Origin: Catajapyx aquilonaris
Lineage: Eukaryota
Assembly (NCBI GenBank): GCA_000934665.2
Contig: JYFJ02002524.1
Coordinates: 1 to 55,615 of the forward strand
Length of the DNA stretch: 55,615 nt
Direction of reading: 5' to 3'
Numbering within the stretch: position 1 is the stretch's first letter; every line of letters begins with the position of its first letter. Position numbers and translations under genes: made by a program. The notes under the pieces were generated by a model. It ran no database searches. It saw only the letters and a list, made by a program, of their open reading frames with translations, and was not told the DNA's origin. Below, one piece after another: positions 2,621-49,420 of this stretch.

Positions 2621-3589
2621 AGCCATTAACGTTTTGTGTAGCTAATGACGCCCAACTAATATTTTCTGTGACTAATAAAGAAAACTAATATTTCATAACA
2701 ATTTAACTAGCTTATAACCATATAATACTGTAGCTAATAGTTTATAACCACAATACTGCAGCTAGTAGTTTATAAATCCCATATCATTAGTGTTATACCA
2801 TCTAAAGTAGCTATCTCAAAGTAACTGCTTAAATAAGCGTACTCTGGTTTTAAAACGTTTAGCTGACCGTTCAGAGCTATCTTAACCTACCGTTAACTCT
2901 ACCGAACGTTAAATGGTGGAGAAACCGCCAGTTAATAATTGGTCTGCAAAAGCAGGTATTAGTCATCACATCTTAACAACGAGTTAAAATGTTGGAATAT
3001 TTTTGTGTTAAACTTCCGTTAACACTTAACGGCCAGTTTAAGGACATAAGGAATGAAGTGGAAAATGTAGGAAAAGTAGTGGGGCCTCAGCGCTAATAGT
3101 TCCTGATCATTCAAGTAGGGATCTTACCGTGCTTTGACCAATCCGGAATTAGATCCGGATCGGACCCCTACCCTTTCCCTCACTTTTTCATAACAAAGAG
3201 AAAAAAAAGAATGCAGGTTAGTAGCCCATCTTTTCCCGGATTGATCCGGGCATGGACAGGCAGTCCCTGCAGTAAAACCGACACCTGCACCGCCAATAAA
3301 TCCGGGCCGAATTGTGCTCCGGATTAATAAGGCGTTGCCATGCGCCACCTACCCTCCCTTCCCTCCAACCCTCTCCCACACAGCTAGACACACACACACA
3401 AAATATCCGGGACCAAATGTCAAAGTCAAACCCGGAAACAATTTGGACCACATTCCCCCCCCCCCCCCCCCNCTACTCACACTATACGTTTGTTTATTAC
3501 GAGGATTTGCTGCCCAAGTTGACGGTCCCAGGATGTTAAGAGATTAATTGTCGAATTGTCGACTCCAGCATCCAGAATTTTACATACAA

Positions 3590-6800: not shown

Positions 6801-7289
6801 TGCCCCGAGTGATTGGAGTCGAGTTTGGGTTTTTTTTTGTCTCTCAGGCCCAGTACACACTTCAAATACTCCCCTGATCAATTGCACTAAATTTTGCACA
6901 ACAAAGCTAATGGAGATGGAAGAGTGGGGTGGGCCAGTACGGGATGGGGAGGTGGGGGGTGGGAGGTAAAAAAGCTAAGTGATATTTGGCCTTGACATAT
7001 GCAACATGCGCCATTTATGAAATAATAATGCTCGCATTTCAACCGTGCTTTTTTCACTGAATAAGTCAAACCCTGCTGGAGTTATATATTTTAAATGAAG
7101 CTCGGGGTGCAGCAGGGCCGAGCATTAAAAGTTCAATCTGAAGGGCACGAAACTAGTACGAATTGACATTTAAATATAGTGGGTGCCATGGACTACACTG
7201 GACTACGCTGGACTACAAATGGCTACACATGGGAAGATGACCTACTAATGGCTGGTTGCTGGGTTGAACAACTGATGTGACATTGACAG

Positions 7290-7735
7290 GAACATGATTG
7301 CCCAAAATGGTCGTCAGCAACTTGGTTGCCTATAATGGGTTGCCAGCAATTTTGGTGACCATAATAGTTGCAACTACGTTGCTCAATATGGGTTGCCAGA
7401 AACTTGATTGCCCAAATGAGTCTCGAGCAACTTGGTTGCCTATAATGAATTGCCAGAAATTTGGTTGCTCAACATGGTCGTCAGCAACTTGGTTGCCAAA
7501 GTGTGTCACCGGTAACTTGGTTGCCCAAAATTGTCCACGGCAAGTTGGTTGCCTAAAATGAATTGTCAGAAATTTGGTTGCTCAACATGGTCGTCAGCAA
7601 CTTGGTTGCCATAATGGGTCGCCGGGCAACTTGTTTACCCGAAATTGTCGACGGCCAGCTGGTTGCCCAAAGTGAATGTCCAGCAACTTCATTGCCCAAA
7701 ATGGGCGCCAGCAACTTGGTTGCTCAAAATGGCTG
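7290..7735. repeat. Array of about 30-bp units built on the palindrome gcaacttggttgc
   Basis: About 14 copies of cagcaacttggttgcc(caaaatgg) and variants. Confidence 0.85.
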
Positions 7736-19384: not shown

Positions 19385-19720
19385 GGGGAGGCGAAGTGGT
19401 GCTGCGGTAACGTAGGCGCCCGCGGATGTTAAGGTCCCGGGTTCGATCCCAACCCGGGGTTCCCCCCTTCATCTCGCGCAGAGTGAGACCGTCTCTGGCT
19501 TCGTTTCGGGTGGCGATCCTTTCACATATGCCACCCGGGGGAGTTCACAAAACGGCACATCAACGACATTGCACACGCACTCTGCACATCCCCTCCTACC
19601 TACCCTTGGAACACACTAAATACTATCTTAGTATACCGGTTCCACCCAAATGGTGGTATTCCACCCCCCCTAAAGGAAATGTAACTCCCAATGGGGTAAT
19701 GCAAAAAAATAATAAATAAT
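19385..19720 (+). mobile_element. tRNA-derived SINE
   Basis: Pol III A-box-like TGGTGCTGCGGT and B-box GGTTCGATCCC at tRNA spacing, a non-tRNA body, a 3' stem-loop (cccaatggg) and an A-rich tail; it interrupts a 35-bp array. Confidence 0.75.
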
Positions 19721-20240
19721 AATTAACTAACTAAATGAATAGTTAATAACCAAATAACTAACTAACTAAATGAATAGTTAATAACCAAATAACTAACTAA
19801 CTAAATGAATAGTTAATAACCAAATAATTAACTAACTATTAAAATAGTTAATAACCAAATAATTAACTAACTAAATAAATAGTTAATAACCAAATAATTA
19901 ACTAACTAAATAAATAGTTAATAACCAAATAATTAACTAACTAAATAAATAGTTAATAACCAAATAATTGACTAACTAAATAAATAGTTAATAACCAAAT
20001 AATTAACTAACTAAATAAATAGTTAATAACCAAATAAATAAGTGAATAACCAAATAATTTGGTCATTTATTTCATTATTCATAGTTAATAGTAAGTCATT
20101 GATTGGGTTATTGTGATATTTATTTAGATAGTTAGATATTTATTTAGTTGGTTAATTATTAACTAGCTAAATAAATATCTCAATAACCCAATCAGTAACT
20201 TACTAACTTATTAACTCTATAAATAGCCTAATAAATAAAT
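19721..20240. repeat. 35-bp minisatellite aattaactaactaaataaatagttaataaccaaat
   Basis: About 9 copies, followed by an inverted degenerate segment at about 20060-20160. Confidence 0.9.
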
Positions 20241-36829: not shown

Positions 36830-37500
36830 TAACGTAGCTGCGACGTTGATATCAACAAAGTAAACTGCTACGTTAATATCATCTAAGAAAGATGCTACGT
36901 TAATATTGGCTAAGAAAGATGCTACGTTAATATTGGCTAAGTCAACCGCTAGGTTAATATTGGCTAAGTCAACAGCTAGGTTAATATCAATTAAGTAAAT
37001 TGCTACGTTAATAGCGGCTAGGGAACTGCCACCTAAATAGCGATCAAGAAACTCCTACGTCAATATATACAGTAGATCAAGAAACTACTACGTTAATATA
37101 AATTAAGTAAATTCCTTCGTTAATATAAATTAAGTAAACTTCTTCGTTATTAATATCGGCTAAGGAACTGCTACATAAAATAATAGAGATCAAGTAATCT
37201 GCTACATAAAATAATAGAGATCAAGTAAACTGCTACATAAAATAATAGAGATCAAGTAAACTGCAACGTTTATATCGACACAGTAAACTGCTACGTTTAT
37301 ATCGACAAAGTAAACTGCTACGTTTATATCGACACAGTCAACTGCTACGTTTATATCGACACAGTCAACTGCTACGTTTATATCGACAAAGTAAACTGCT
37401 ATGTTCATATTGAATAATTAAACAGCTACGTTCATATAGAATAGTTAAACAGCTACGTACATATTGAATAATTAAACAGCTTCGTTCATATCGAATAAGT
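36830..37500. repeat. About 27-bp array ctgctacgtttatatcgacacagtcaa and variants
   Basis: gctacgttaatat/gctacgtttatat recurs about every 27-30 bp. Confidence 0.9.
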
Positions 37501-37518
37501 CATAGAGCGAAAATCTAC

Positions 37519-37625
37519 TGATGATGTCATAGAGGGCGACCGCCTCTGATGACGTCAGCGGGAAAATCCGCCACCTTATGACGTCACGAGCTCTTAATGG
37601 TCGTTTTCCCCCGCCATTTTGTTGA
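37519..37625. promoter_or_regulatory. Cluster of CRE (TGACGTCA) sites plus a YY1-like CCGCCATTTT
   Basis: Perfect TGACGTCA at 37550 and 37579, TGATGTCA at about 37522, and CCGCCATTTT at about 37611; about 0.9 kb upstream of IR paralog 1. Confidence 0.35.
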
Positions 37626-38376
37626 GGTTTGCGACACATGACCAGGATGTCATACCACTTGGGCCATTTTCAGCTGCCAAAAAATTGGCACGGTGGGTTT
37701 GGCAAAAGCGGTGGCGAAAATGATACGCGATAAAGCGTGCTGGGGGGAGGCTTCAGCTGCAAGCGTGGGGATCATAAAGGATGAAGTGGATCCCACGGGT
37801 TGCGACCAAAACAACCGCTGCTACAGCTGCCTCTCGCCAAATCATTTAACCAATTTTTTTTTCGCAAATATTCCTGCACCAAATTGAGTTCATAAAATAT
37901 CCTTGTGAATGGAGTAATCGCCAGTGCCCAATTGACCATGTTTTTTAGGGTCCAGGTAGGGTTGTCGTTCATTGCTGTATTGTCGCAAATGTTTAATTAA
38001 AATATGGCAGATCCATCGATATCGATAAAATATTCCGGGGGCCGAATTGGTGGAGACCTTTTCCCCTTCTTTTGCGGTATGAAACGCGATAAATCGGTGT
38101 CGATTCGGCTTATGGCGGCATAAAAATTCAATTTCAAGGCGCCCTAGGAACACTTTTGATCGACTCTTCCGGCTCCCCTTCTTCAAGACACAGAAGAAGC
38201 AAATCATCGGCATACTCAAAATATTGCTCCATCGGATTCCTGCTGGGAGACAACGAGAATGAATATTGGGGAAATAGGGAGGTATAATATTCAGCGAAAA
38301 TATTGATGTACAGGCGACTTTTGATGTCTAATATCCTTTGATCAGATCCGTGGTCTCCAATTACAAGTTGCGCACT

Positions 38377-38416
38377 ACTAGGTACAGTACACTGAGTGTA
38401 TCGATGATACTTGAAA
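38377..38416 (+). promoter_or_regulatory. Upstream motif conserved between the two IR paralogs (copy 1)
   Basis: actaggtacagtaca...tgtatcgatgatacttgaaa matches actaggtaacagtaca...tgaatcgatgtattacttggaa at 40491-40532; the copies lie 128 and 138 bp before the aligned ATGs. Confidence 0.55.
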
Positions 38417-38477
38417 ATATTACGTGATTGTGTTGTCAGAATTGTAGTGTCGTGTATAACACGGGACTGTCCTGATT

Positions 38478-40388
38478 ATGACGTACAGAAGAAATACTTC
38501 AGCCATGTTGGTCTCTTCACTTGTTGTTTACTATTGCTTCAACATTGCAGGGGCTGTCGTACATTTACAGCCAGTAAATTGCACAGACGATGGAATTACT
38601 CAGTTTGTCAACAGTATTCTGCAAAGTGACCTCGTCATGGACATGGAGTGTCCACTGGCTGTCACCCACGACTGGGCCGGACCCATCCCTCATAGTCTGG
38701 ACACACTCCTGTCCAACATGTCCTCTGCTGGACGACCCCTGGTCATCAGGACAAGTTCTCAGAGCACCTGGGATTGCCAGCCGACATCTAGAGACAATGC
38801 GGCCGTGTTCAGAGAGCCATACCGCGCATCCAAGTGTCTGGTGCACATGGTTGTGACATGCCAGGACACCTACGAGGACATGATGGACATCATTTTGGAC
38901 CCGGACGAAGGGATGCTCGGAGTGAGGAAGACAAAGGACCGGTTCGTGTTCTGGTTACGGGACTCGACTCATCCGGATTTCATGCTGGACAAACCGGCCT
39001 CGCAGTTCAAGTACAAGGTGTCGGTCACCACAGGAGGAGACGGTGCTCTCAAGGCACACTCGGTGTGTTTCTTCTGCGACGATGGAGAACCACATATCCA
39101 ATCAGTGTCTGAATCAGAATCAGACTTGTTCAGAGACACTGCAGAGGACCTGCATGGGAAGCATCTGGAAGGTGTTTACTTATGGCAAAGTAGTGACAAA
39201 GACTGTAGCAGCGTCAGTGTACATGAGAGTCATATGTGCTTCTTGGGTGAGGCAATGAACTTCCATTGGAATTTCAAATGGGTAGATTTCGACGCTATCC
39301 TTTCTGACACTGGCCGTGCCCTAGAACTGATGGAGGACTTCAGATCCGGAAAGTTGGACTTCATACCAAAGGCCCCTGTGCTGGACCTGGTACACCAACT
39401 GTTTGATTGTGCCACACCTCATGATGCCCACAGGTACACTTTCATTGCGCGCAAGCCCCGACCACTTATAACTCCGTTAATTTTAGTATTGCCCTTCTCG
39501 TCTTTGACCTGGTGCTTGCTGATCTCATCATTTGTACTGGAGGTGGGATGTTTGTCACTAATATCCAAGTTTCACAGGAGACATGGGATGCTAACTCCGT
39601 TCAAGTCCACTGTCGCCATATTTAAATATTTAGCAAAAATTGTTGTGGAGCAGTATCCACGCTCACCTCGGTCGTCGTCGTACAGAATATTCCTTATGTT
39701 CTGGATATATTTCTGCACAATATTTTGCACCGCATACAAAAGCAAGTTGTACAATATGCTGATTTTTCCACCCTTAGAAAATATTCCAAAGGACATTGCT
39801 GAACTGCGTCATTCCAGTTTCTCCATAGAAACGTCACAAATAGTGAAGGTGTTTCTAGATGAGGCAAGTCATGATTTCCATAACACATACGCCGATTTCA
39901 TATCAAAAATACGTGTCGTAAAGTTGGTACAACATTGCCAAGACGATATTATGACAGGTGACGTTGTGATCCTGGAAGCCGACGCTGTATTGAGGGATAT
40001 CACTTATCGCGTGTCTCTTTACTACAATTCCGAGGCCTTCATATCAAGTGATACCATGGCTCTTGTGCACACATCAATGATTGTACTGAAGGACAGCATA
40101 TTGGCTGAGAACATTGACAAATGGATGCATGTGTTCAACAGCATCGGTTTGGACTTGCATCGGAAGAGTATGAACACTCATGAGCTGTCGCTGATTGTTG
40201 CCATGAAACGAAGACTCAATAAGTTGTTCAATTCTGGAAGGAATGATGTGCAGTTCACCTGGGATCATGTCGAAGGATCCTTCTTGATTCTGCTCGCCGG
40301 AAGCATCGCTGGATTGTTTGTACTTTTTCTAGAACTGTGCAGTGCGCATATTCGTAAGCGAAAAAGACACACACTTCAAAAAATGTAA
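38478..40388 (+). CDS. Divergent ionotropic receptor (IR; variant iGluR chemoreceptor), intronless, paralog 1; likely true start at ATG 38505
   Basis: 636-aa uninterrupted ORF. It has a signal-peptide-like N-terminus (MLVSSLVVYYCFNIAGA), S1 end and pre-M1 (FDCATP..FIARKP..PFSSLTW), pore-like segment (VVEQYPRSPRSSSYRI), M3-like helix and S2 start (TAYKSKLYNMLIFP..IPKDIAEL) and last TM (FTWDHVEGSFLILLAG..LFLE) with a short basic tail. The N-terminal region is shorter than a full iGluR ATD. ATG 38505 aligns with the paralog ATG (offset 2124). Confidence 0.9.
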   Translation: MTYRRNTSAMLVSSLVVYYCFNIAGAVVHLQPVNCTDDGITQFVNSILQSDLVMDMECPLAVTHDWAGPIPHSLDTLLSNMSSAGRPLVIRTSSQSTWDCQPTSRDNAAVFREPYRASKCLVHMVVTCQDTYEDMMDIILDPDEGMLGVRKTKDRFVFWLRDSTHPDFMLDKPASQFKYKVSVTTGGDGALKAHSVCFFCDDGEPHIQSVSESESDLFRDTAEDLHGKHLEGVYLWQSSDKDCSSVSVHESHMCFLGEAMNFHWNFKWVDFDAILSDTGRALELMEDFRSGKLDFIPKAPVLDLVHQLFDCATPHDAHRYTFIARKPRPLITPLILVLPFSSLTWCLLISSFVLEVGCLSLISKFHRRHGMLTPFKSTVAIFKYLAKIVVEQYPRSPRSSSYRIFLMFWIYFCTIFCTAYKSKLYNMLIFPPLENIPKDIAELRHSSFSIETSQIVKVFLDEASHDFHNTYADFISKIRVVKLVQHCQDDIMTGDVVILEADAVLRDITYRVSLYYNSEAFISSDTMALVHTSMIVLKDSILAENIDKWMHVFNSIGLDLHRKSMNTHELSLIVAMKRRLNKLFNSGRNDVQFTWDHVEGSFLILLAGSIAGLFVLFLELCSAHIRKRKRHTLQKM

Positions 40389-40490
40389 GCTGTTGGAGAC
40401 AACAATATTGTTGTAACTTGTTGACGTCAGAGTCGTTTCGATCACACCCACTGTTATTGCGACACAAGAGCAGCTTCTGTGAGGCCTACC

Positions 40491-40532
40491 ACTAGGTAAC
40501 AGTACATGGTGAATCGATGTATTACTTGGAAT
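40491..40532 (+). promoter_or_regulatory. Upstream motif conserved between the two IR paralogs (copy 2)
   Basis: Homologous to 38377-38416, while the surrounding intergenic DNA is poorly alignable. Confidence 0.55.
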
Positions 40533-40628
40533 ACATAAGGTTATTGAGTAGGCAAAAATGACGCACAACAGTGGCATAAGTCAAAAGCGACAGTCCTGTT
40601 TCAGTATTCCTAAGCAGATATTTCAATC

Positions 40629-42506
40629 ATGTTGCCTACTGCAATTGTTGTTTACACTTGCTTCAACATTGCAGAGGCATTTGTAGATTTACAGCCTGGT
40701 AATGGTAAGGATTATGGAATCCCTCAGTTTGTCAATAATATTCTTGGACATGCCCTGGTCATGGACATGGAGTGTCCACTGGCTGTCACCCACGACTGGG
40801 CCGGACCCATCCCTCAGAGTCTGGACACACTCCTGTCCAGCTTGTCCTCTGCTGGACGACCCCTGATCATCAGGACAAGTGCTGAGAGCACCTGGGATTG
40901 CCAGCCGACATCTAGAGACAATGCGGCCGTGTTCAGAGAGCCATACCGCGCATCCAAGTGTCTGGTGCACATGGTTGTGACATGCCAGGACACCTACGAG
41001 GACATGATGGACATCATTTTGGACCCGGACGAAGGGATGCTCGGAGTGAGGAAGACAAAGGACCGGTTCGTGTTCTGGATACGGGACTCGACTCATCCGG
41101 ATTTCATGCTGGACAAACCGGCCTCGCAGCTCAAGTACAAGGTGTCGGTCAGTACAGGAGGAGCCAACGGTGCTCTCAAGGCACACTCGGTGTGTCTCTT
41201 CTGCGACCAAGGAGAACCACAGATCGAATCAGTGTCTGAGGACACTTTCTTCAAAGACTATGCAATGGATCTACATGGAAAACACCTCGAAGGTGTCTAC
41301 ATGTGGGAAGGGAGCGACCAAAAGTGCAGTAGCTTGAACGTAGATGATAGTCATATGTGCTTTTTGGGTACAGCCATGAATTTCCATTGGCATACCACCG
41401 AAGTCTATTTCGACATCATCCTTTCCGATGCTCGCAGAAGCCTCGATCTGATGGAAGATTTTATATCTGGCAAAGTGACCTTCATACCAAAGGTCCCTGT
41501 CGTGGACCTGATTTACCAACTGTTTGATTGCTCCTCACCTCATGATGCTTACAGATATTCGTTCATTGCACGTAAGCCACGATCTGTAATCACGCCGTTA
41601 ATTTTAGTAATGCCTTACACACTTACTACCTGGTGCTTGCTGATCTCATCATTTGTGCTGGAGGTGGGATGTTTGTCATTAATATCCCAGTTTCACAGGA
41701 GACATGGGATGCTAACTCCGTTCAAGTCCACTGTCGCCATATTTAAATATTTAGCAAAAATTGTAGTGGAGCAGTATCCTCGTTCACCTCGGTCGTCGTC
41801 GTACAGAATATTCCTTATGTTCTGGATATATTTTTGCACAATATTTTGCACCGCATACAAAAGCAAGTTGTACAATATGTTGGTTTTTCCTCCTTTAGAA
41901 AAAATTCCGAGGGACATTGATGAACTGACCCGTTCCAAATTCTCCATACAAACATCGCCAATGGTGAAAATGTTTCTAGATGAAGCAAGTCATGATTTCA
42001 AAGACACATACGCAGATTTCCTTACAAAAATAAGTGTCGTGAAATGGATCGACGTTTACTACAATGATATTCTGACAGGTGATGTTGTGATCCTGGAAGC
42101 CGACTCTGTCTTGAGGGATATCGCGTTTCGCGCATTTATTTATAACAATTCCGACACCTTCACATCGAATGACACGATGGCTATTGTGCACACGTCCATG
42201 ATAGATCTGAAGAACAGCATTTTCTCAGATAACGTTGACAAATGGATTCATGTTTACAACAGCATCGGTTTGGAGCTGCATCAGCAGAGGATGAACATCC
42301 ATAGACTAGGACTGTCTGCTGCCAAGAAGCAAAGGTTGAACAAATCAATCGCTTCTGAAATAAACGATGTGCAGTTCACCTGGTATCACGTCGAAGGATC
42401 CTTCCTGATCCTGTTCGTTGGGATCATTGCAGGGTTAGTTGCTCTTTTGCGCGAACTGTGCTGCGTACATGTGTGTAGGTGCAAAAGACGCACGCTTCGA
42501 ATGTAG
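40629..42506 (+). CDS. Divergent ionotropic receptor (IR), intronless, paralog 2
   Basis: 625-aa ORF collinear with the upstream ORF and carrying the same IR/iGluR motifs (PYTLTTW, TAYKSKLYNMLVFP, VEGSFLILFVG) and a signal-peptide-like start MLPTAIVVYTCFNIAEA. Confidence 0.9.
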   Translation: MLPTAIVVYTCFNIAEAFVDLQPGNGKDYGIPQFVNNILGHALVMDMECPLAVTHDWAGPIPQSLDTLLSSLSSAGRPLIIRTSAESTWDCQPTSRDNAAVFREPYRASKCLVHMVVTCQDTYEDMMDIILDPDEGMLGVRKTKDRFVFWIRDSTHPDFMLDKPASQLKYKVSVSTGGANGALKAHSVCLFCDQGEPQIESVSEDTFFKDYAMDLHGKHLEGVYMWEGSDQKCSSLNVDDSHMCFLGTAMNFHWHTTEVYFDIILSDARRSLDLMEDFISGKVTFIPKVPVVDLIYQLFDCSSPHDAYRYSFIARKPRSVITPLILVMPYTLTTWCLLISSFVLEVGCLSLISQFHRRHGMLTPFKSTVAIFKYLAKIVVEQYPRSPRSSSYRIFLMFWIYFCTIFCTAYKSKLYNMLVFPPLEKIPRDIDELTRSKFSIQTSPMVKMFLDEASHDFKDTYADFLTKISVVKWIDVYYNDILTGDVVILEADSVLRDIAFRAFIYNNSDTFTSNDTMAIVHTSMIDLKNSIFSDNVDKWIHVYNSIGLELHQQRMNIHRLGLSAAKKQRLNKSIASEINDVQFTWYHVEGSFLILFVGIIAGLVALLRELCCVHVCRCKRRTLRM

Positions 42507-42789
42507 GCTCCTGTAAGAATGTGATATTATGATATATATTTCATTCATCGATTGATATAACCTCAATATCTGTAACCTTAGAAGTGCAATCCGTCAGTGT
42601 TTACAGCACAAGAGCCCTATCGACATACTGAGGTCCCTTTGTACTGTCCGTGATGTGTTATTATGATTCACACACCATGAACAACCCTCAGTCCCGACAT
42701 ACATTTTGAAGTAGGCGAATACTGTGCACCTTTCTATACAGTATAGGCCTAGGCCTACTCTGAAAACATCACGTGACAATATATCACTC

Positions 42790-42817
42790 AATAAAAATTA
42801 ACATTGTAGCAAATAAA
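42790..42817 (+). terminator. Candidate polyadenylation signals for IR paralog 2
   Basis: AATAAA at 42790 and 42812, followed by a T/GT-rich tract, about 290 bp after the stop codon. Confidence 0.4.
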
Positions 42818-45050
42818 TTATGATAAGAAAACTACAAATTTTTTGTGTTTTATTTGGACTAAATGATTCGCAATAACCTCCCTGGTTCCAACCTGTGTGA
42901 CATGTCCTGCCCTGACGTGTGTGTCCCCGTAGCCAAATGACCATTGGACCAATTTTTGGGGGGTATAGAGAGAAGAGAAGAGAGGAATAGTTTCCGAGTG
43001 AGTGGCTCGTCATTCATTTCTCGCTGAAGCTCCCCCCGATCGATTCTCTCTCGCTTTTTTTCCCCTCCTCCTCCTCCTCCCGCTTTTTATGGCTAACCCA
43101 CTTTATTTTGGCGGACCTGCTTTCTGGAGATTTTTCTCGCGGGGCCATATATCCAGCTTCACTGGTTGGAGGAAGGGAAGGAGGGGAGGGGAAAGAAGGA
43201 GGATGAATATCTACCAAACATATTGGGGATGCTGTACTTGGCTTTTTATCGTGTACTGTTGACGACATAAATGCAGTGGACATGCGATATATCGATATAT
43301 CAGAATATGTTAATTATATATTTTTTGAATATTATGAACTACGTAGGCCTCACATTTCATTTCGAGTGCTCTCTCTAGGTATTATATATATTAAAGCAGA
43401 ACTCTTTGGGTTAGCCTTTTAGGTATATGATACAATATACCGGCAATTAAAAGCTAATTATTATTGTCATATAATAAATTAATGATACAATAACATGTGA
43501 TGTAACATACTAACATAGAGGTGAAGCATACGGCAGGTGTTAGCAACCTTTCCCTAAACAGAGACGTCTCTGCTATGTCTAAATTCGTGTAGATGTCGGG
43601 GGCTGGACTAGTGAGCCTGAAGGAAGTTCATTGTCGCTCAATTACCGTCCTTAATTGTCGTCCAATCTAGTTTCCTAAGTCTGTCTTGTTCTCCTTCAAA
43701 CCCTGGAGGAGTTTGTTAATGAGCGAATCTGATACCCGGTTGCCCCGGATCCATTTCCCACAGCCGGACACTCTTCCTACATTAAAGTCAGCGTGTAGCT
43801 CCCAGCATAAGCCAATCAGCGCTTTTGTCTTACTCTTGCACACGCACACACAAACTATCTCACTGCCTCAACCTTCTCAACAATAGGCCAGCCCCCTCCA
43901 AGCCATTTTTGCAGACCAACAATGGTTCCTGCTGGCTCCGGGTCATTCCGGAAGTGCCTTCCATTTTTGCTCAAAAATGGAGGGGAGGGCTACCAAGGGA
44001 TGAAACTCATTCTTTTCTTCTTCCTTGCTTCCTCCCATCTTCACAACGGTTCACTCTCTTCTTCCACTTTCCTGCCCCTTTGTTGCACCCGGGCGAATCT
44101 CTTCTATGGAGCGTTCTGTATAGATTGATAAGCTTAATGGGCACTTTCACCCTCCGACCCTCTCGACCTCCTCCTCCTCCCCCCTCCCCTTCCCATATAC
44201 CCTTAGACTATGCTTTGCTAGAAAAGTCTCAGGTTGCGTATTTTTTGTGTCCGTTTTCTTTTCAGAAAGGTCTGAGCAACGGTTCTCTAATTGAAATTTG
44301 CCTCCAGCTTTTCTCTCTCTCTCTCTCTCTCCCTCTCTCTGAATATCGGGATCCGTTTAAAATGTCTTGAGACGGCGTATCGTTAACTTGAGATTGGCAG
44401 CTTGTCACAACCCTGGATTTTTTTTTTATCGACAAGAGTTGGCCCGTCTTGAGAGGGAGCAATTATATGGGTTGGAAGCTGTAAGATCGAGCGATTTAAC
44501 CTTTTAAACACTTATCGGGATCGTCGTGGCAACACTGTTCCTGATCCAGGTGGCACCACAGGTCTCTCCAATTGCTTAACTGGCCGTTGAGAGCGGCAGT
44601 TAACCTGTAGTTAGCAGTGTGACAAATAAGATAAACAAGTAATAATTGTTCGATCGTTTCTGTTAAAAAAATACATTAATTTATTTTCAGCTTCAATCTT
44701 GCCTATATGCAGTAAATTTTAATGATATTTATATTCAGCTGCATTTGTAGTTATAGTTTATATAGTTGGTTTATAAATAACAAAATAACAAATTAAGCAA
44801 AATAAAACGTCCAATGAAAATAACCCAGCTAAACTAACCAATGAATAAAATATCCTCACCAATTAAATAAATAACTAGTAAATAAAACAGCTAACAAAAT
44901 AACCTGTAAAATTAATAACGATACGGTATTTACGCTTTTCATTATTATTAAATAAATTTTTATTGTGTTGCTTTGCGTTACTTTACTAAATTTTATTGTG
45001 CATTATACTTTACTAAATTTTATTGTGCATTATACTTTACTAAATCTTCT

Positions 45051-45258
45051 TGCGTATACATATTACAATAGTAATATTTCATATTGCGTATACATATTAC
45101 AATAGTAATATTTCATATTGCGTATACATATTACAATAGTAATATTTCATATTGCGTATACATATTACAATAGTAATATTTCATATTGCGTATACATATT
45201 ACAATAGTAATATTTCATATTGCGTATACATATTACAATAGTAATATTTCATATTGTG
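45051..45258. repeat. 34-bp minisatellite tgcgtatacatattacaatagtaatatttcatat
   Basis: About 6 perfect copies. Confidence 0.95.
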
Positions 45259-45384
45259 TATTAGATTGCATATAATTTTGTATACATTCGATTTTATTTT
45301 ATAGCTACTTTTATTTTACCATATATATTTATAGCAATTTTATTTTATATTCATCTGCAATTCTGTATTTATTAATTATTTATT

Positions 45385-45600
45385 AATTATTTGTATTACT
45401 TATCTGTTATGGATATTATTTGTATTACTTATCTGTTATGGATATTATTTGTATTACTTATCTGTTATGGATATTATTTGTATTACTTATCTGTTATGCA
45501 TATTATTTGTATTACTTATCTGTTATGCATATTATTTGTATTACTTATCTGTTATGCATATTATTTGTATTACTTATCTGTTATGGATATTATTCGTATT
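45385..45600. repeat. 29-bp minisatellite ttatttgtattacttatctgttatg(g/c)ata
   Basis: About 7 copies. Confidence 0.95.
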
Positions 45601-46799
45601 ATTTTACATTATATTTTATATTATGATGTAGTTTATTATTTTATATTTATGATATAGTTTATTATTTGGAACCAACCCCGTGCAACAATTGAGCGTCGTG
45701 CAACCTCTGGCCTTCATCTTGAAAGACTCTGTTGGCAAGAAAAAGCAGGCCATGCAACCAGATGAAGTGACATTTTTACCTCCCAGTCCCTGCCGTTTAT
45801 TTTTATTTGGAGTTCAATAACTGTTTCGCAGGGAAAGATTTAAGAGGGGGGGGGGAGGGGGGTTCTGAAAATGGGGAGAGGGAGGGAGGGGAGGGAGGAA
45901 GGGAGGAAGGGAGAAACGACGGGGACAAATCACCCCCAGGAAATTGCTGGAAACGACGGAACCAGTTCCAGCCAAAGCAATTGGGACCTGATTTAACCAG
46001 TTGTATCACAGAGTGTTCGGACCATACCCTCAGCTCTTTATCATTTTTTAAAAAACACAAGATGGCGCCGACACCCTAAAAAGAGAGAGCTTCAATATTC
46101 GAGCCAGAAAAAAAAATGTTTAATTCCTTTTGAAATTGAAGTGTGCTAAGACCCTTTGCGTTAAGTGCGGAGCAATACTTTATGAATGGTTCTTCAGGAA
46201 AAAAAAGTCACTCGTTTCCATTCCTATTAGAGTGCAAAAGGCGAGATGGGGGAGGCCAATGGGCTCATTTGCATCTCCAAATTCCTACCTTGGCATCAAG
46301 CCCAGATACAACTCGAAAAAAAAAATTGTACGAAAAGATGGTAATGACCTGTGTTATGCTATACGAACAAAAATCTGCGCCAAAGCTTGGTAATTACAAG
46401 AGAATATGCCCTTTTTAAAACTGGGTGTGAATTTTGTTTTCATGTGGAGCTGGCCGTGCAATAGAGCCGAATAGAAACACTGTAAACTATTATTCGCGTG
46501 ATATTTAAAAACACAACAACAACATTCACGTCTATATCACTTTGTTTGTGTTCGCGCCTGATTTTCCCTTAAAAACTACGTAGTTCGCCAAAAAATTGCA
46601 AAAACTGCACTTTTCACGCCTACGCCACCAAAAATAGTCCAACACATTTCCATAATCCACGATTTATTGTTTGCCATCCTTTTATATTTTCCCAACAATA
46701 TCTCGCTTTCCGTTTACAATAAACGTAGCCTACATAACAACCAAACCTATCCCACATAAACTAGTAAAAGTATGCCCGATGTTTTTATAAAATGTTCTG

Positions 46800-48049: not shown

Positions 48050-49420
48050 TTCATCGTATAATATATAGCATCGATAATTTGAAATTACAAGCCGATATGA
48101 CGCATTATCGATGGATATAACCATTATAAATGGATATATCAAATTATCGATATGATTGCAATATAATCAATATATCTCATTATCGATATGATTACAATAT
48201 TATCGATATATCTCATTATCGATAGGATGCCAATATAATCGATATATCTAATTATCGATATGATTATAATATAATCGATATATCTAATTATCGATATTAT
48301 TACAATATAATCGATGTATCGCATTATCGATATGATTACAATATAATCGATATATCGAATTATCGATATTATTACAATATAATCGATGTATCGCATTATC
48401 GATATGATTACAATATAATCGATATATCGAATTATCGATATTATTACAATATAATCGATGTATCGCATTATCGATATGATTACAATATAATCGATATATC
48501 GAATTTTCGATATTTTTTCGAAATTCAAAGTCGATTTGTTTCTTTATCAACGAGTTTAACCATTACAAATCGAAAAATCACATTCATTTTAAAGCGTAAA
48601 TCGATATATCTCATTATCGATAGGATGCCAATATAATCGATATATCTAATTATCGATATGATTATAATATAATCGATATATCTAATTATCGATATGATTA
48701 TAATATAATCGATATATCTAATTATCGATAGGATGCCAATATAATCGATGTATCGCATTATCGATATGATTACAATATAATCGATATATCGAATTTTCGA
48801 TATTTTTCGAAATTCAAAGTCGATTTGTTTCTTTATCAACGAGTTTAACCATTACAAATCGAAAAATCACATTCATTTTAAAGCGTAAATCGATATATCG
48901 GATTATCGATAGGTTTGAAAATTACAATCCAAAGCATTGTATCATCAATGTTTTTGATAATACAAGTCGATATGTCGCATTATCGATGCATTTGACCATT
49001 ATAAATCGATACATCGTATTATAGGTATGCTTGAAAATTACATTCCACTCTAACGATTATGCGATATTTTTGAAATTTCCTGCCTACATGTCGCATTATC
49101 AATACATCTGACCATTAAAAATCGATATATCACGTTAGCAGAATATAGCAAATTACAAATCGATGTAGTCTATTGCATCGTTGACATTAAAAAATATACA
49201 AGCCGATATGGCGCATTATCGATGCATTTCACGTTTCCCCATTACAACTTGACATATCCTATTATAGATGTTTCAAATGACTTATCGATATAATCACATT
49301 ATCCATTTACAATATTCTTTTTCGATTCGGTTTCGATATTTGGTGTCGAACAATCGTCATCCAACACTAGGTGTTCGATGTCAATATCGATATTTGCGAT
49401 ATTTACGATATTTTGCTTTA
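48050..49420. repeat. 36-bp ATCGAT-rich array with a higher-order duplication of about 289 bp
   Basis: Unit attatcgatatgattacaatataatcgatatatc(tc/ta/ga); a unique segment aaattcaaagtcg..aagcgtaaa is repeated at 48521 and 48810. Confidence 0.9.

Follow-up and report, generated by a model that had tools for sequence, protein, structure and literature searches.

Gene conversion confined to one region of a gene is well known, with TLR1/TLR6, protocadherins and NLRs as examples. In mammalian TLR1 and TLR6 (Kruithof et al. 2007, PMC2077338), tandem receptor paralogs that share a co-receptor, conversion acts in a fixed region and the other domains diverge. The clustered protocadherins of fugu (PMC1852091) show subcluster-wide homogenisation of one part of their large single exons; the converted part varies by subcluster and has a GC3 about 20 points higher. 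In the zebrafish NLR-B30.2 genes (bioRxiv 10.1101/022061), a large expanded receptor family, conversion proceeds domain by domain and leaves a group-specific homogenised assembly domain, for which a multimerisation rationale has been proposed, along with a neutral alternative. The primate red and green opsins (reviewed in PMC3924837) supply the model of selection resisting conversion around tuning sites.

For arthropod divergent ionotropic receptors (IRs), Croset et al. (2010, PMC2924276) describe single-exon genes in tandem arrays with an N-terminal region of about 200 aa, an S1-M1-M2-M3-S2-M4 layout, a degenerate ligand-binding Arg and a degenerate M3 motif. They are said there to evolve by birth and death, with a highly divergent N-terminus. 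A Drosophila survey (PMC4122928) found some conversion in IR groups, of negligible effect, and the text examined mentions no domain pattern; in the text examined of a paper on IR expansion in cockroaches (PMC6175461), the words "conversion" and "concerted" have zero occurrences. Our literature search on IRs, in which subscription journals were thinly covered, found no report of conversion pooling IR N-terminal domains.

The window analysed here, 55,615 nt from Catajapyx aquilonaris, holds two tandem genes that share the architecture of the Croset IRs, except that their N-terminal domain is the most homogeneous part rather than a highly divergent one. The locus resembles each of the converted systems above and differs from each. 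Where TLR1/TLR6 are two genes with one C-terminal tract, proven by orthologs from nine species, here about 20 copies carry a family-wide N-terminal tract plus a pair-level channel tract, traced among paralogs. In fugu the homogenised part is the 3' part, in a tight cluster; here it is a 5' domain, equally similar within and between contigs. The NLR-B30.2 proteins are cytoplasmic immune receptors in which both domains are converted, with differing scopes. In the opsins, divergence forms a narrow peak against a converted background, introns included, whereas the IRs here show conversion islands in a diverged background.

Gene A (38505..40388, 627 aa) and its tandem paralog gene B (40629..42506, 625 aa, 76% identical to A in amino acids) lie on the forward strand, as do all their parts given below. 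Each is one open frame with about 210 residues before S1. The start codon of A was picked via paralog alignment, and a further in-frame ATG lies at 38478. In all four runs, read contigs (40124-40718/40753) connect the two genes, from the end of A into the start of B.

By sequence and predicted fold, A and B are divergent IRs of the iGluR superfamily. All 48 aligned family members match PF00060 (Lig_chan) at E<=0.01 (best 8.5e-13; A, 5.7e-6), although the scores of A (26.7 bits) and B (30.4 bits) fall slightly below the 30.8 cut-off, and the family profile matches solved iGluRs with E 4e-17. The AlphaFold model (pLDDT 79.9) contains the split S1/S2 clamshell around M1-M3, followed by M4, and the ligand-binding domains of iGluRs superpose on residues 216-566 (Z 18, rmsd 2.8-3.3, with about 225 residues aligned). 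Both genes have the IR features of a short N-terminal region in place of a full ATD and a single coding exon. An indirect pointer to the IR clade is that the Atlas clusters lying closest, at scores of 0.97-0.98, are of the arthropod IR type. The S1 arginine of iGluRs binds the ligand; in all 14 clade members the column of the GluD1 Arg (residue 296 of A) holds V, I or T, and this arginine has thus been lost.

In the model, the N-terminal domain folds into alpha/beta structure over residues 51-201. When the whole model is aligned to full-length iGluRs, the alignments begin at chain residues ~105-172, but with an rmsd of 9-16, and an Atlas part search returned IR75A_N-bearing clusters at 0.87-0.89, which we take as leads only. 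The N-domain profile matched no solved structure and no convincing Pfam family, so the putative half-ATD label comes from where the domain lies, from its secondary structure and from Atlas scores below 0.9. On that basis, the segment probably encodes a half-ATD (R2 lobe) that would dock on the IR25a/IR8a co-receptor. A cryo-EM preprint (10.64898/2026.09.30.755715) presents the tuning-IR ATD as an R2 half that touches the ATD of the co-receptor and has a part in determining which co-receptor is used.

Direct comparison of the two genes reproduces the mosaic described in the earlier note. The signal-peptide-like segment and first helix of A (38505..38633; model helices at residues 2-19 and 26-39) are not homogenised, with 17 of 43 amino acids differing from B. 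There follows tract 1, covering the N-terminal domain (A, 38634..39081, residues 44 to ~193; B, 40758..41208), whose cores, 38634-39027 and 40758-41151, differ at 8 of 394 nt. It includes a run of 194 identical nt (38761..38954 in A, 40885-41078 in B); when the match string was shuffled 10,000 times, the longest run averaged 33.8 and never exceeded 96. The S1 half (A, 39147..39494, residues 215-330; B, 41268..41615) differs at 34 of 116 amino acids, close to an earlier hand count of about 36. Tract 2, the M1-M2-M3 channel segment (A, 39507..39758, residues 335-418; B, 41628..41879), is again nearly identical, with 7 of 252 nt differing. Divergence returns in the S2 half (A, 39765..40214, residues 421-570; B, 41886..42335), where 54 of 150 amino acids differ, and in the last transmembrane helix and tail (A, 40227..40388), with 12 of 38 differing in M4 (residues 575-612).

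Synonymous divergence between A and B is strongly uneven, not uniform: dS is 0.011 in tract 1, 0.107 in tract 2 and 0.56-0.77 elsewhere, the signal region having 0.56. Synonymous differences number 1 at 91 sites in tract 1, 6 at 60 in tract 2 and 120 at 274 in the rest (Fisher p 1e-17 and 3e-7 for tracts 1 and 2, which were picked post hoc); when the sequence outside tract 1 was scanned by permutation, tract 2 received a corrected p of ~6e-8. A two-rate change-point fit reproduced the edges at 38634, 39507 and 39759 and shifted the end of the first tract to ~39081 in A. With dS of ~0.6-0.8 outside the tracts, A and B are best explained as old tandem duplicates that belong to a large lineage of tuning-type IRs lacking introns.

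A possible objection is that the identical tracts were made by assembly or polishing cross-talk between the copies. The assembly is fragmented (20,583 contigs), two contigs (C14159 and C10371) end within tract 1, and over the 194-bp run A and B both carry the family majority letter at every site, with 17 of the 18 other copies differing at 1-7 sites. Contigs were built from the raw reads of one sample (perhaps the assembled one) in four runs; they give no phasing across stretches longer than 31 nt. In all four, the tract-1 core has a depth of 208-398 against 17-41 in single-copy parts, that is, 10-12 times (as seen in B for the read contig 40905-41129); the 21 assembled copies would predict a slightly higher 13.5-14.2 times, a small point in favour of cross-talk. 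The tract-2 core has a depth of 52.7 against 32.8, a ratio of 1.6 where 1.5 is expected, and A-specific and B-specific read contigs extend 30 nt into and out of tract 2. The depth of tract 1 and the presence of the M1-M3 junctions of both genes in read contigs make polishing cross-talk unlikely. Moreover, cross-mapping presupposes near-identity and cannot raise 60-75% identity to 95%, and neither raised GC3 nor a member that has escaped homogenisation (both below) is the signature of an artefact. We consider cross-talk a highly improbable source of the tracts. The phase of A and B across the 194-bp run is beyond the reach of these read contigs; assembly chimeras between copies could inflate the A/B identity and the PHI statistic given below, and it is unlikely, if conceivable, that the exact 194-bp identity was smoothed by assembly.

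The two-gene mosaic of the earlier note stands as a pattern but was drawn too narrowly, as only the M1-M3 tract is specific to the pair. Tract-1 DNA has 36 matches in the genome, 20 of them at 94-100% identity and spread over 11 contigs. Among 14 long ORFs of the clade, pS over residues 44-190 is 0.083 (range 0.01-0.15) against 0.46-0.61 in five other regions, and the codon-model tree length of the N domain is 0.98 against 7.6-9.6 in other regions. Tract-1 distance does not track rest-of-gene distance (Mantel r 0.15, p 0.17). Physical closeness was rejected as a driver within the clade, with a tract-1 distance of 4.7% in 20 same-contig pairs and 4.8% in 116 different-contig pairs. One member, C9669, is nested inside the clade by its C-terminal part and lies outside it by its N domain (N-domain pS 0.44), which shows that the segment is able to diverge in an open ORF. 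Outside this genome, protein homologues amounted to one distant match (22% identity) among 7,635 candidates, and none of the 5,087 distant relatives from a profile search was serviceable as an ortholog.

A second, distant IR lineage (21% identical) shows a milder form, with third-position identity of 85-88% over residues 31-120 and 76-88% over residues 361-480 against 65-70% in most of S1; this is suggestive only, since the set includes broken and very young copies.

Low synonymous divergence in tract 1 might instead reflect constraint on the nucleotides themselves (RNA structure, a regulatory element, an antisense frame) or mutation that is locally slow. N-domain pS is also lower in five other clades (0.11-0.40 against 0.20-0.62), and tract 1 shares sequence with antisense frames of 129 and 179 codons, although we take these as shadows of the IR frame. 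Between lineages, however, N-domain pS is 0.73, the same as elsewhere, and this saturation largely refutes the idea. Tract 1 gave no sign of RNA structure (folding z-score 0.76), there were zero Rfam matches in 37500-43500, the N domain of C9669 has diverged at background rate, and constraint cannot yield the patchwork of shared variants and indels described next. We regard it as very improbable.

The variants within tract 1 form a patchwork, in which short alternative haplotype blocks, and 3-nt indels too, are shared in conflicting combinations. At about 5% divergence, 54% of informative site pairs are incompatible (PHI p 0.0005-0.001, which presupposes correct phasing in the assembly). Trees built per domain from the paralogs conflict, the N and C trees rejecting one another (AU p 7e-4 and 4e-57). 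GC3 is 0.68 in tract 1 against 0.475 elsewhere, and across 62 genes, which are not independent, the GC3 excess tracks the degree of homogenisation (rho -0.65). In tract 2, GC3 is not clearly raised (0.51 and 0.49 against 0.38-0.55), and the tract-1 variant spectrum gives no sign of GC bias (S>W, 22 single and 15 shared; W>S, 18 single and 15 shared). A protected unmethylated CpG island gained no support, N-domain CpG o/e (0.40-0.66) being below or like that of the rest in most clades.

These data also bear on whether, in one recent sweep, every gene received its N-terminal cassette a single time from the same donor, with no continuing exchange. The N tree is star-like (16% internal length) and its distances are rather uniform (2.5-7.3%), as such a sweep would have it. 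But the conflicting blocks, edges that differ between pairs (residues 174-221) and GC3 that rises in step with homogenisation across clades point to long-running exchange, and we judge a single sweep quite improbable. Homogenised synonymous sites, conflicting trees, raised tract-1 GC3 and the read contigs thus support the interlocus conversion that the earlier note had proposed.

Third-position tracts were detected in 75 of 91 pairs without C9669 and in none of 14 pairs with it. Their median ends are residues 40 and 216 (change-point medians, 42 and 205); the 3' edge thus comes near the start of the ligand-binding domain, placed by structural alignment at residues 211-220. In a second clade, 11 of 12 tracts lie inside residues 50-205. 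Internal repeats were rejected as a trigger, only one 16-nt inverted pair among 34 standing out. Tract 2 of A is 97% identical to B and 60-81% to other clade members, and a second M1-M3 tract (residues 329-416) links another pair of the clade.

The earlier note had attributed the mosaic in part to selection keeping the ligand-binding halves distinct. Our measures, region-wide omega and per-column counts among extant copies, do not establish this. Omega is 0.30 in S1 and 0.41 in S2; over all regions it is 0.28-0.50, nowhere above 1 and highest in the N domain (0.50). Hypervariable columns number 7 of 111 in S1, 13 of 146 in S2, 3 of 91 in M1-M3, 2 of 38 in M4, 5 of 15 in the tail and 4 of 43 in the signal region. 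No opsin-type peak of divergence was found at ligand-determining sites; divergence is gene-wide outside the tracts. Nor is S1/S2 free of tracts, which fall within it or run across it once in the A/B clade (89 nt, involving a broken copy), three times in the second clade and once in a third; one clade has none. Conversion islands in a diverged background are weaker evidence for selection than the opsin peak. That selection against homogenising S1/S2 makes a real contribution is, to us, nearly an even question.

The rival reading accepts the same copying and parts from ours only over why tracts stop: exchange would persist where homology is highest or at a 5' recombination-prone zone, and fade elsewhere past a divergence or indel threshold, the match to domain edges coming from purifying selection and feedback. 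Consistent with this, comparison of 12 lineages (66 pairs) gives the lowest pN in the N domain (0.389 against 0.444-0.485, pS being saturated everywhere), and ten genes outside the six multi-member clades have an N-domain GC3 of 0.51 against 0.41-0.46. The signal region, M4 and tail bind no ligand yet are as diverged as S1 and S2, three broken copies also bear the homogenised tract 1, an indel-rich linker (residues 200-207) lies near its 3' edge, and it is younger clades whose tracts enter S1/S2. On the other side, residues 281-325 and 401-425 are equally conserved (pN 0.08-0.17) but are not homogenised clade-wide (pS 0.38-0.63), many pairs remain alike beyond the linker up to residues 210-221, where S1 starts, and both long tracts outside the N domain, in independent pairs, end no more than about 6 codons away from the S1/M1 and M3/S2 borders. 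That conversion proceeds with the ligand lobes free of selection against it is a serious possibility, though we hold it somewhat short of probable.

We propose that ectopic recombination, by gene conversion or equivalent short double exchanges, would copy short pieces of the ~450-bp N-domain segment among the ~20 copies, on the same contig or not. With such recurrent copying the segment would evolve as one pool with raised GC3, and the rest of each gene, past the identity threshold for exchange, would evolve independently. Exceptions would be occasional events between close relatives, the M1-M3 segment having apparently been replaced twice in this clade. Swaps of the half-ATD may be harmless or useful; swaps into the ligand-binding domain would change tuning and presumably be removed more often. 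We think it very likely that the probable half-ATD, which would dock on the co-receptor, undergoes recurrent ectopic gene conversion, and likely that the explanation as a whole (old duplicates, a pooled N segment, an independent rest) holds.

A bolder extension, which we rate as rather doubtful, is that in this lineage each IR subfamily keeps a concertedly evolving half-ATD as a "constant region" addressing all its members to one co-receptor or trafficking route. Selection would then favour exchange of the half-ATD and M1-M3 and block it in the ligand-binding domain, and subfamilies or escapees like C9669 would split once their half-ATDs stop exchanging. If true, gene conversion would have given arthropod chemosensation a receptor design of the constant/variable kind.

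Very large IR expansions need not follow plain birth and death, in that one domain can be pooled across ~20 old paralogs. Pooling of this kind leads gene trees, dating and short-read assembly of such families astray. The stretch that is pooled matches the domain which, in the new IR structures, sits against the co-receptor, and the family offers natural chimeras, with the same N domain, different ligand lobes and one escapee, for testing the role of the N domain in tuning IRs.

Gene A occupies 38505-40388 (627 aa) and gene B 40629-42506 (625 aa). Both are single-exon forward-strand ORFs, arranged in tandem and in the same orientation, and the window, a complete contig (G000:C1203), has no other long ORF; the ORF scan found none besides them above 200 codons. 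Degenerate tandem arrays and simple repeats (48070-49130, 36838-37502, 19718-20238, 7282-7732, 45050-45604) occupy much of the remaining contig. Both proteins score slightly below the cut-off of Pfam Lig_chan, which is matched by 48 of 48 aligned family members; the family profile matches solved iGluRs (E 4e-17), and the closest Atlas clusters are of arthropod IR type. The AlphaFold model (pLDDT 79.9) resembles iGluR structures, with iGluR ligand-binding domains superposing on residues ~216-566 (Z 18); some 210 residues precede S1, the first half of that domain. The S1 arginine column, which we take to be the position of the iGluR ligand-binding arginine, holds V, I or T in 14 of 14 members of the clade to which A and B belong. 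By the class definition in the part of PMC2924276 available to us, A and B are divergent, tuning-type IRs.

The earlier note had described the pair as a mosaic of near-identical and diverged domains, and direct comparison bears out its counts. Tract 1, an N-terminal piece (core 38634-39027 in A, 40758-41151 in B), differs at 8 of 394 nt, and tract 2, the M1-M2-M3 channel piece (39507-39758 and 41628-41879), at 7 of 252 nt; tract 1 holds a 194-nt identical run from 38761, where 10,000 shuffles reach 96 at most. S1 differs at 34 of 116 amino acids (roughly 36 had been claimed), S2, described there as clearly diverged, at 54 of 150, and M4 at 12 of 38. Change points fall at 38634, 39081, 39507 and 39759. 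The dS between A and B is 0.011 in tract 1 and 0.107 in tract 2, and outside them 0.56 (signal region), 0.77 (between the tracts) and 0.61 (past tract 2); such strong unevenness removes the objection that dS might be uniform along the gene.

Only tract 2 is specific to the pair; for tract 1 the two-gene picture is too narrow, since the tract extends well beyond A and B. We searched the assembly (285.6 Mb, 20,583 contigs) with A, obtaining at least 71 matches; 70 of 1,254 candidates were scored, so every copy count here is a minimum. Searching with the DNA of tract 1 brought up at least 36 matches, of which at least 20, spread over 11 contigs, are 94-100% identical: 14 long ORFs, three broken copies and three contig-end fragments. 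Among the 17 full-length copies sites differ by 2.5-7.3% within tract 1 and by 12-41% outside it. In the 14 ORFs the synonymous difference proportion (pS) is 0.083 over residues 44-190, while the signal region, S1, TM, S2 and M4/tail have values of 0.455-0.613; the codon-model tree length is 0.98 for the N domain and 7.6-9.6 for other regions. Trees of the N- and C-terminal parts are mutually rejected (AU p 7e-4 and 4e-57). Tract 1 variants, 3-nt indels among them, form short blocks in conflicting combinations between copies; PHI is significant there at two window sizes (p 0.0005 and 0.001), in S1 and TM at one size only and in S2 at neither. Tract 1 distance is 4.7% for the 20 same-contig pairs and 4.8% for the 116 different-contig pairs, although the contigs may form one large cluster, and it shows no significant correlation with rest-of-gene distance (Mantel p 0.17). 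GC3 is 0.68 in tract 1 and 0.475 in the remainder of the gene, and across 62 genes, which are not independent, the GC3 excess tracks the degree of homogenisation (rho -0.65). Synonymous homogenisation, tree conflict, PHI and the raised GC3 of tract 1 together support the claim of interlocus conversion, and we hold copying to be the mechanism with considerable confidence.

Tract edges have medians at residues 42 and 205 by change points, and at residues 40 and 216 in a third-position scan. Since residues 51-201 form the predicted N domain and S1 starts at 211-220, the tract covers the N domain and fades at the S1 border. The same scan found tracts in 75 of the 91 clade pairs without C9669 (L015, G000:C9669:521-2368) and in none of the 14 pairs with it. 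By its C-terminal part this open member lies inside the clade, grouped with A, B and C3404 at 100% support, and its N domain stands at background distance (pS 0.44, 75% identity). It is thus an internal control: the N-domain segment is able to drift in an open frame. Its N-domain GC3 is still 0.63 despite its having left the homogenised pool.

A possible objection is that the identical tracts come from polishing cross-talk between the copies. We matched read contigs from four DNA runs (one sample, one study) at 90% likeness; the assembly may itself have been built from these runs, so they test the assembly step and not the biology. A contig at ~40905-41129 has depths of 320, 398, 354 and 208, against ~27, 32-39, 31-34 and 17-21 for single-copy parts. 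Depth over the tract 1 core is 10-12-fold where the 21 assembled copies predict 13.5-14.2-fold; a few of these copies may be alleles. In all four runs contigs at 39399-39597 (A) and 41211-41718 (B) pass from S1 through gene-specific letters into the shared run of tract 2, which contigs starting at 39729 (A) and 41850 (B) exit. Over the tract 2 core (39568-39758) depth is 52.7 against 32.8, a ratio of 1.6 (expected 1.5), and A is linked to B by contigs from 40124. From these depths, gene-specific junctions and joining contigs we judge cross-talk unlikely, while phase over the long identical runs lies beyond the contigs. Throughout the 194-bp run A and B carry the family majority, from which 17 of the 18 other copies depart at 1-7 sites; assembly could therefore have smoothed this perfect match, along with some of the PHI signal.

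Two minor contigs were also seen. One, in S1 of A (39254-39335; depth 6-10 of 24-41, three of four runs), has 8 differences from A in 82 nt, giving four silent codons and three amino acid changes (residues 258, 259, 269). None of the 18 assembled copies that span this position matches it; it is either an allele that has diverged or a copy missing from the assembly. The other, upstream of A (38330-38421; one of four runs, depth 9 of 30), carries 8 substitutions and two 3-nt indels.

In tract 2, A and B are 97% identical to each other and 60-81% identical to other members. A permutation scan over 153 pairs, restricted to the sequence past tract 1, yields three segments: A/B at residues 335-418, C2685/C11039 at 329-416, and C11039/broken copy at 269-299 (89 nt, within S1). 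Nearly the same M1-M3 segment has thus been exchanged in two independent pairs, with M4 left out of both. At the end of S1 an island of ~30 nt (39396-39425) is nearly identical in most clade members, at about 4-fold read-contig depth; it reflects either micro-conversion or conserved codons of low degeneracy. One clade member with an internal deletion (L074:1610-2371, G000:C2196) keeps a 298-codon open frame that links residue ~68 to ~418, without most of the N domain, S1 and the pore. Further internally deleted fragments lie at L073:2239-2484 (G000:C10546), where the N domain is fused to the M3 end (residue ~100 to 407), and at L075:2004-2331 and 2870-3059 (G000:C991). The C10546 junction lies near both that of C2196 and the 3' end of tract 2.

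Five further clades have N-domain pS of 0.11, 0.21, 0.40, 0.34 and 0.24 against 0.20-0.62 in S1/S2, the deficit being weak in one of them. Inside residues 50-205 lie 11 of 12 tracts in a ten-gene clade and one tract in a five-gene clade; three tracts of a six-gene clade fall inside residues 216-507, one at 268-404 belongs to an eleven-gene clade, and the third-position scan found none in a seven-gene clade. Between 12 lineages pS is saturated alike in every region (0.72-0.76), which excludes a conserved nucleotide element in the N domain; pN (nonsynonymous) is lowest there (0.389 vs 0.444-0.485). A remote lineage of IRs, with 21% identity to A (L090-L114; G000:C1255, C2255, C7855, C2181, C2196 and others), shows a milder version, with third-position identity higher in N and TM than in S1, young and broken copies included. 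It shares contigs C1255, C7855, C14159 and C2196 with the clade, and seems to have an intron near the N-domain end. In six clades the N domain (38634-39075 in A) has a CpG o/e of 0.40-0.66, below the 0.89 of the window although its GC is higher, possibly through gene-body methylation.

The earlier note had further proposed that selection keeps the ligand-binding halves distinct. Region-wide omega (N 0.50, S1 0.30, TM 0.28, S2 0.41, M4 0.40) lends this no support, nor do hypervariable columns: S1 has 7 of 111 and S2 13 of 146 with at least seven residues, but such columns also occur in M1-M3 (3 of 91), M4 (2 of 38), the tail (5 of 15) and the signal region (4 of 43). The pattern of islands of identity speaks less strongly for it than a divergence peak would. 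Exchange might simply continue wherever sequences stay alike enough, without selection on S1/S2: between lineages no other part is as conserved as the N domain, the tract is present in broken copies too, a small 5' GC3 excess occurs even in unclustered genes, and tracts enter S1/S2 in younger clades. Selection, on the other hand, is favoured by tract edges lying near domain borders in three independent cases, and by S1 and M3 stretches that are equally conserved yet not pooled clade-wide. On balance we put selection on S1/S2 at slightly under even.

As far as the accessible portions of these sources go, the pattern works like that of TLR1/TLR6 (PMC2077338), of fugu protocadherin subclusters, whose converted regions gain GC (PMC1852091), and of zebrafish NLR-B30.2 groups (10.1101/022061). 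Opsins show a divergence peak in a converted gene (PMC3924837, in part), whereas these IRs show identity islands in a diverged gene. For Drosophila IRs the available part of PMC4122928 reports scattered conversion of negligible effect, and the word 'conversion' is absent from the available part of the cockroach IR paper PMC6175461. Our literature searches on IR conversion brought up no description of domain-limited homogenisation. The pattern here is real, unusually clean and broad in scope.

We propose that ectopic recombination among old paralogs would persist only where likeness suffices: the N-domain segment, above threshold clade-wide, would evolve as one pool and gain GC, and the M1-M3 segment would be exchanged occasionally between close pairs. 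Position, alpha/beta pattern, alignments from iGluR residues ~105-172 and Atlas leads below 0.9 suggest that the pooled segment is probably a half-ATD of the IR75b type. According to the available part of a cryo-EM preprint (10.64898/2026.09.30.755715), the IR75b ATD is the R2 lobe only, tuning subunits touch almost exclusively the neighbouring co-receptor, and the ATD interface helps to decide between IR8a and IR25a, with more determinants in the ligand-binding domain. In both A and B the N domain carries a net negative charge (15 K+R, 22 D+E), a hint, from a whole-domain count, of a fit to IR25a by the loose rule in that part of the preprint. C9669 offers a natural control for functional tests. 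If the pooled segment is a half-ATD, both exchanged segments would face the co-receptor, where swaps would be cheap.
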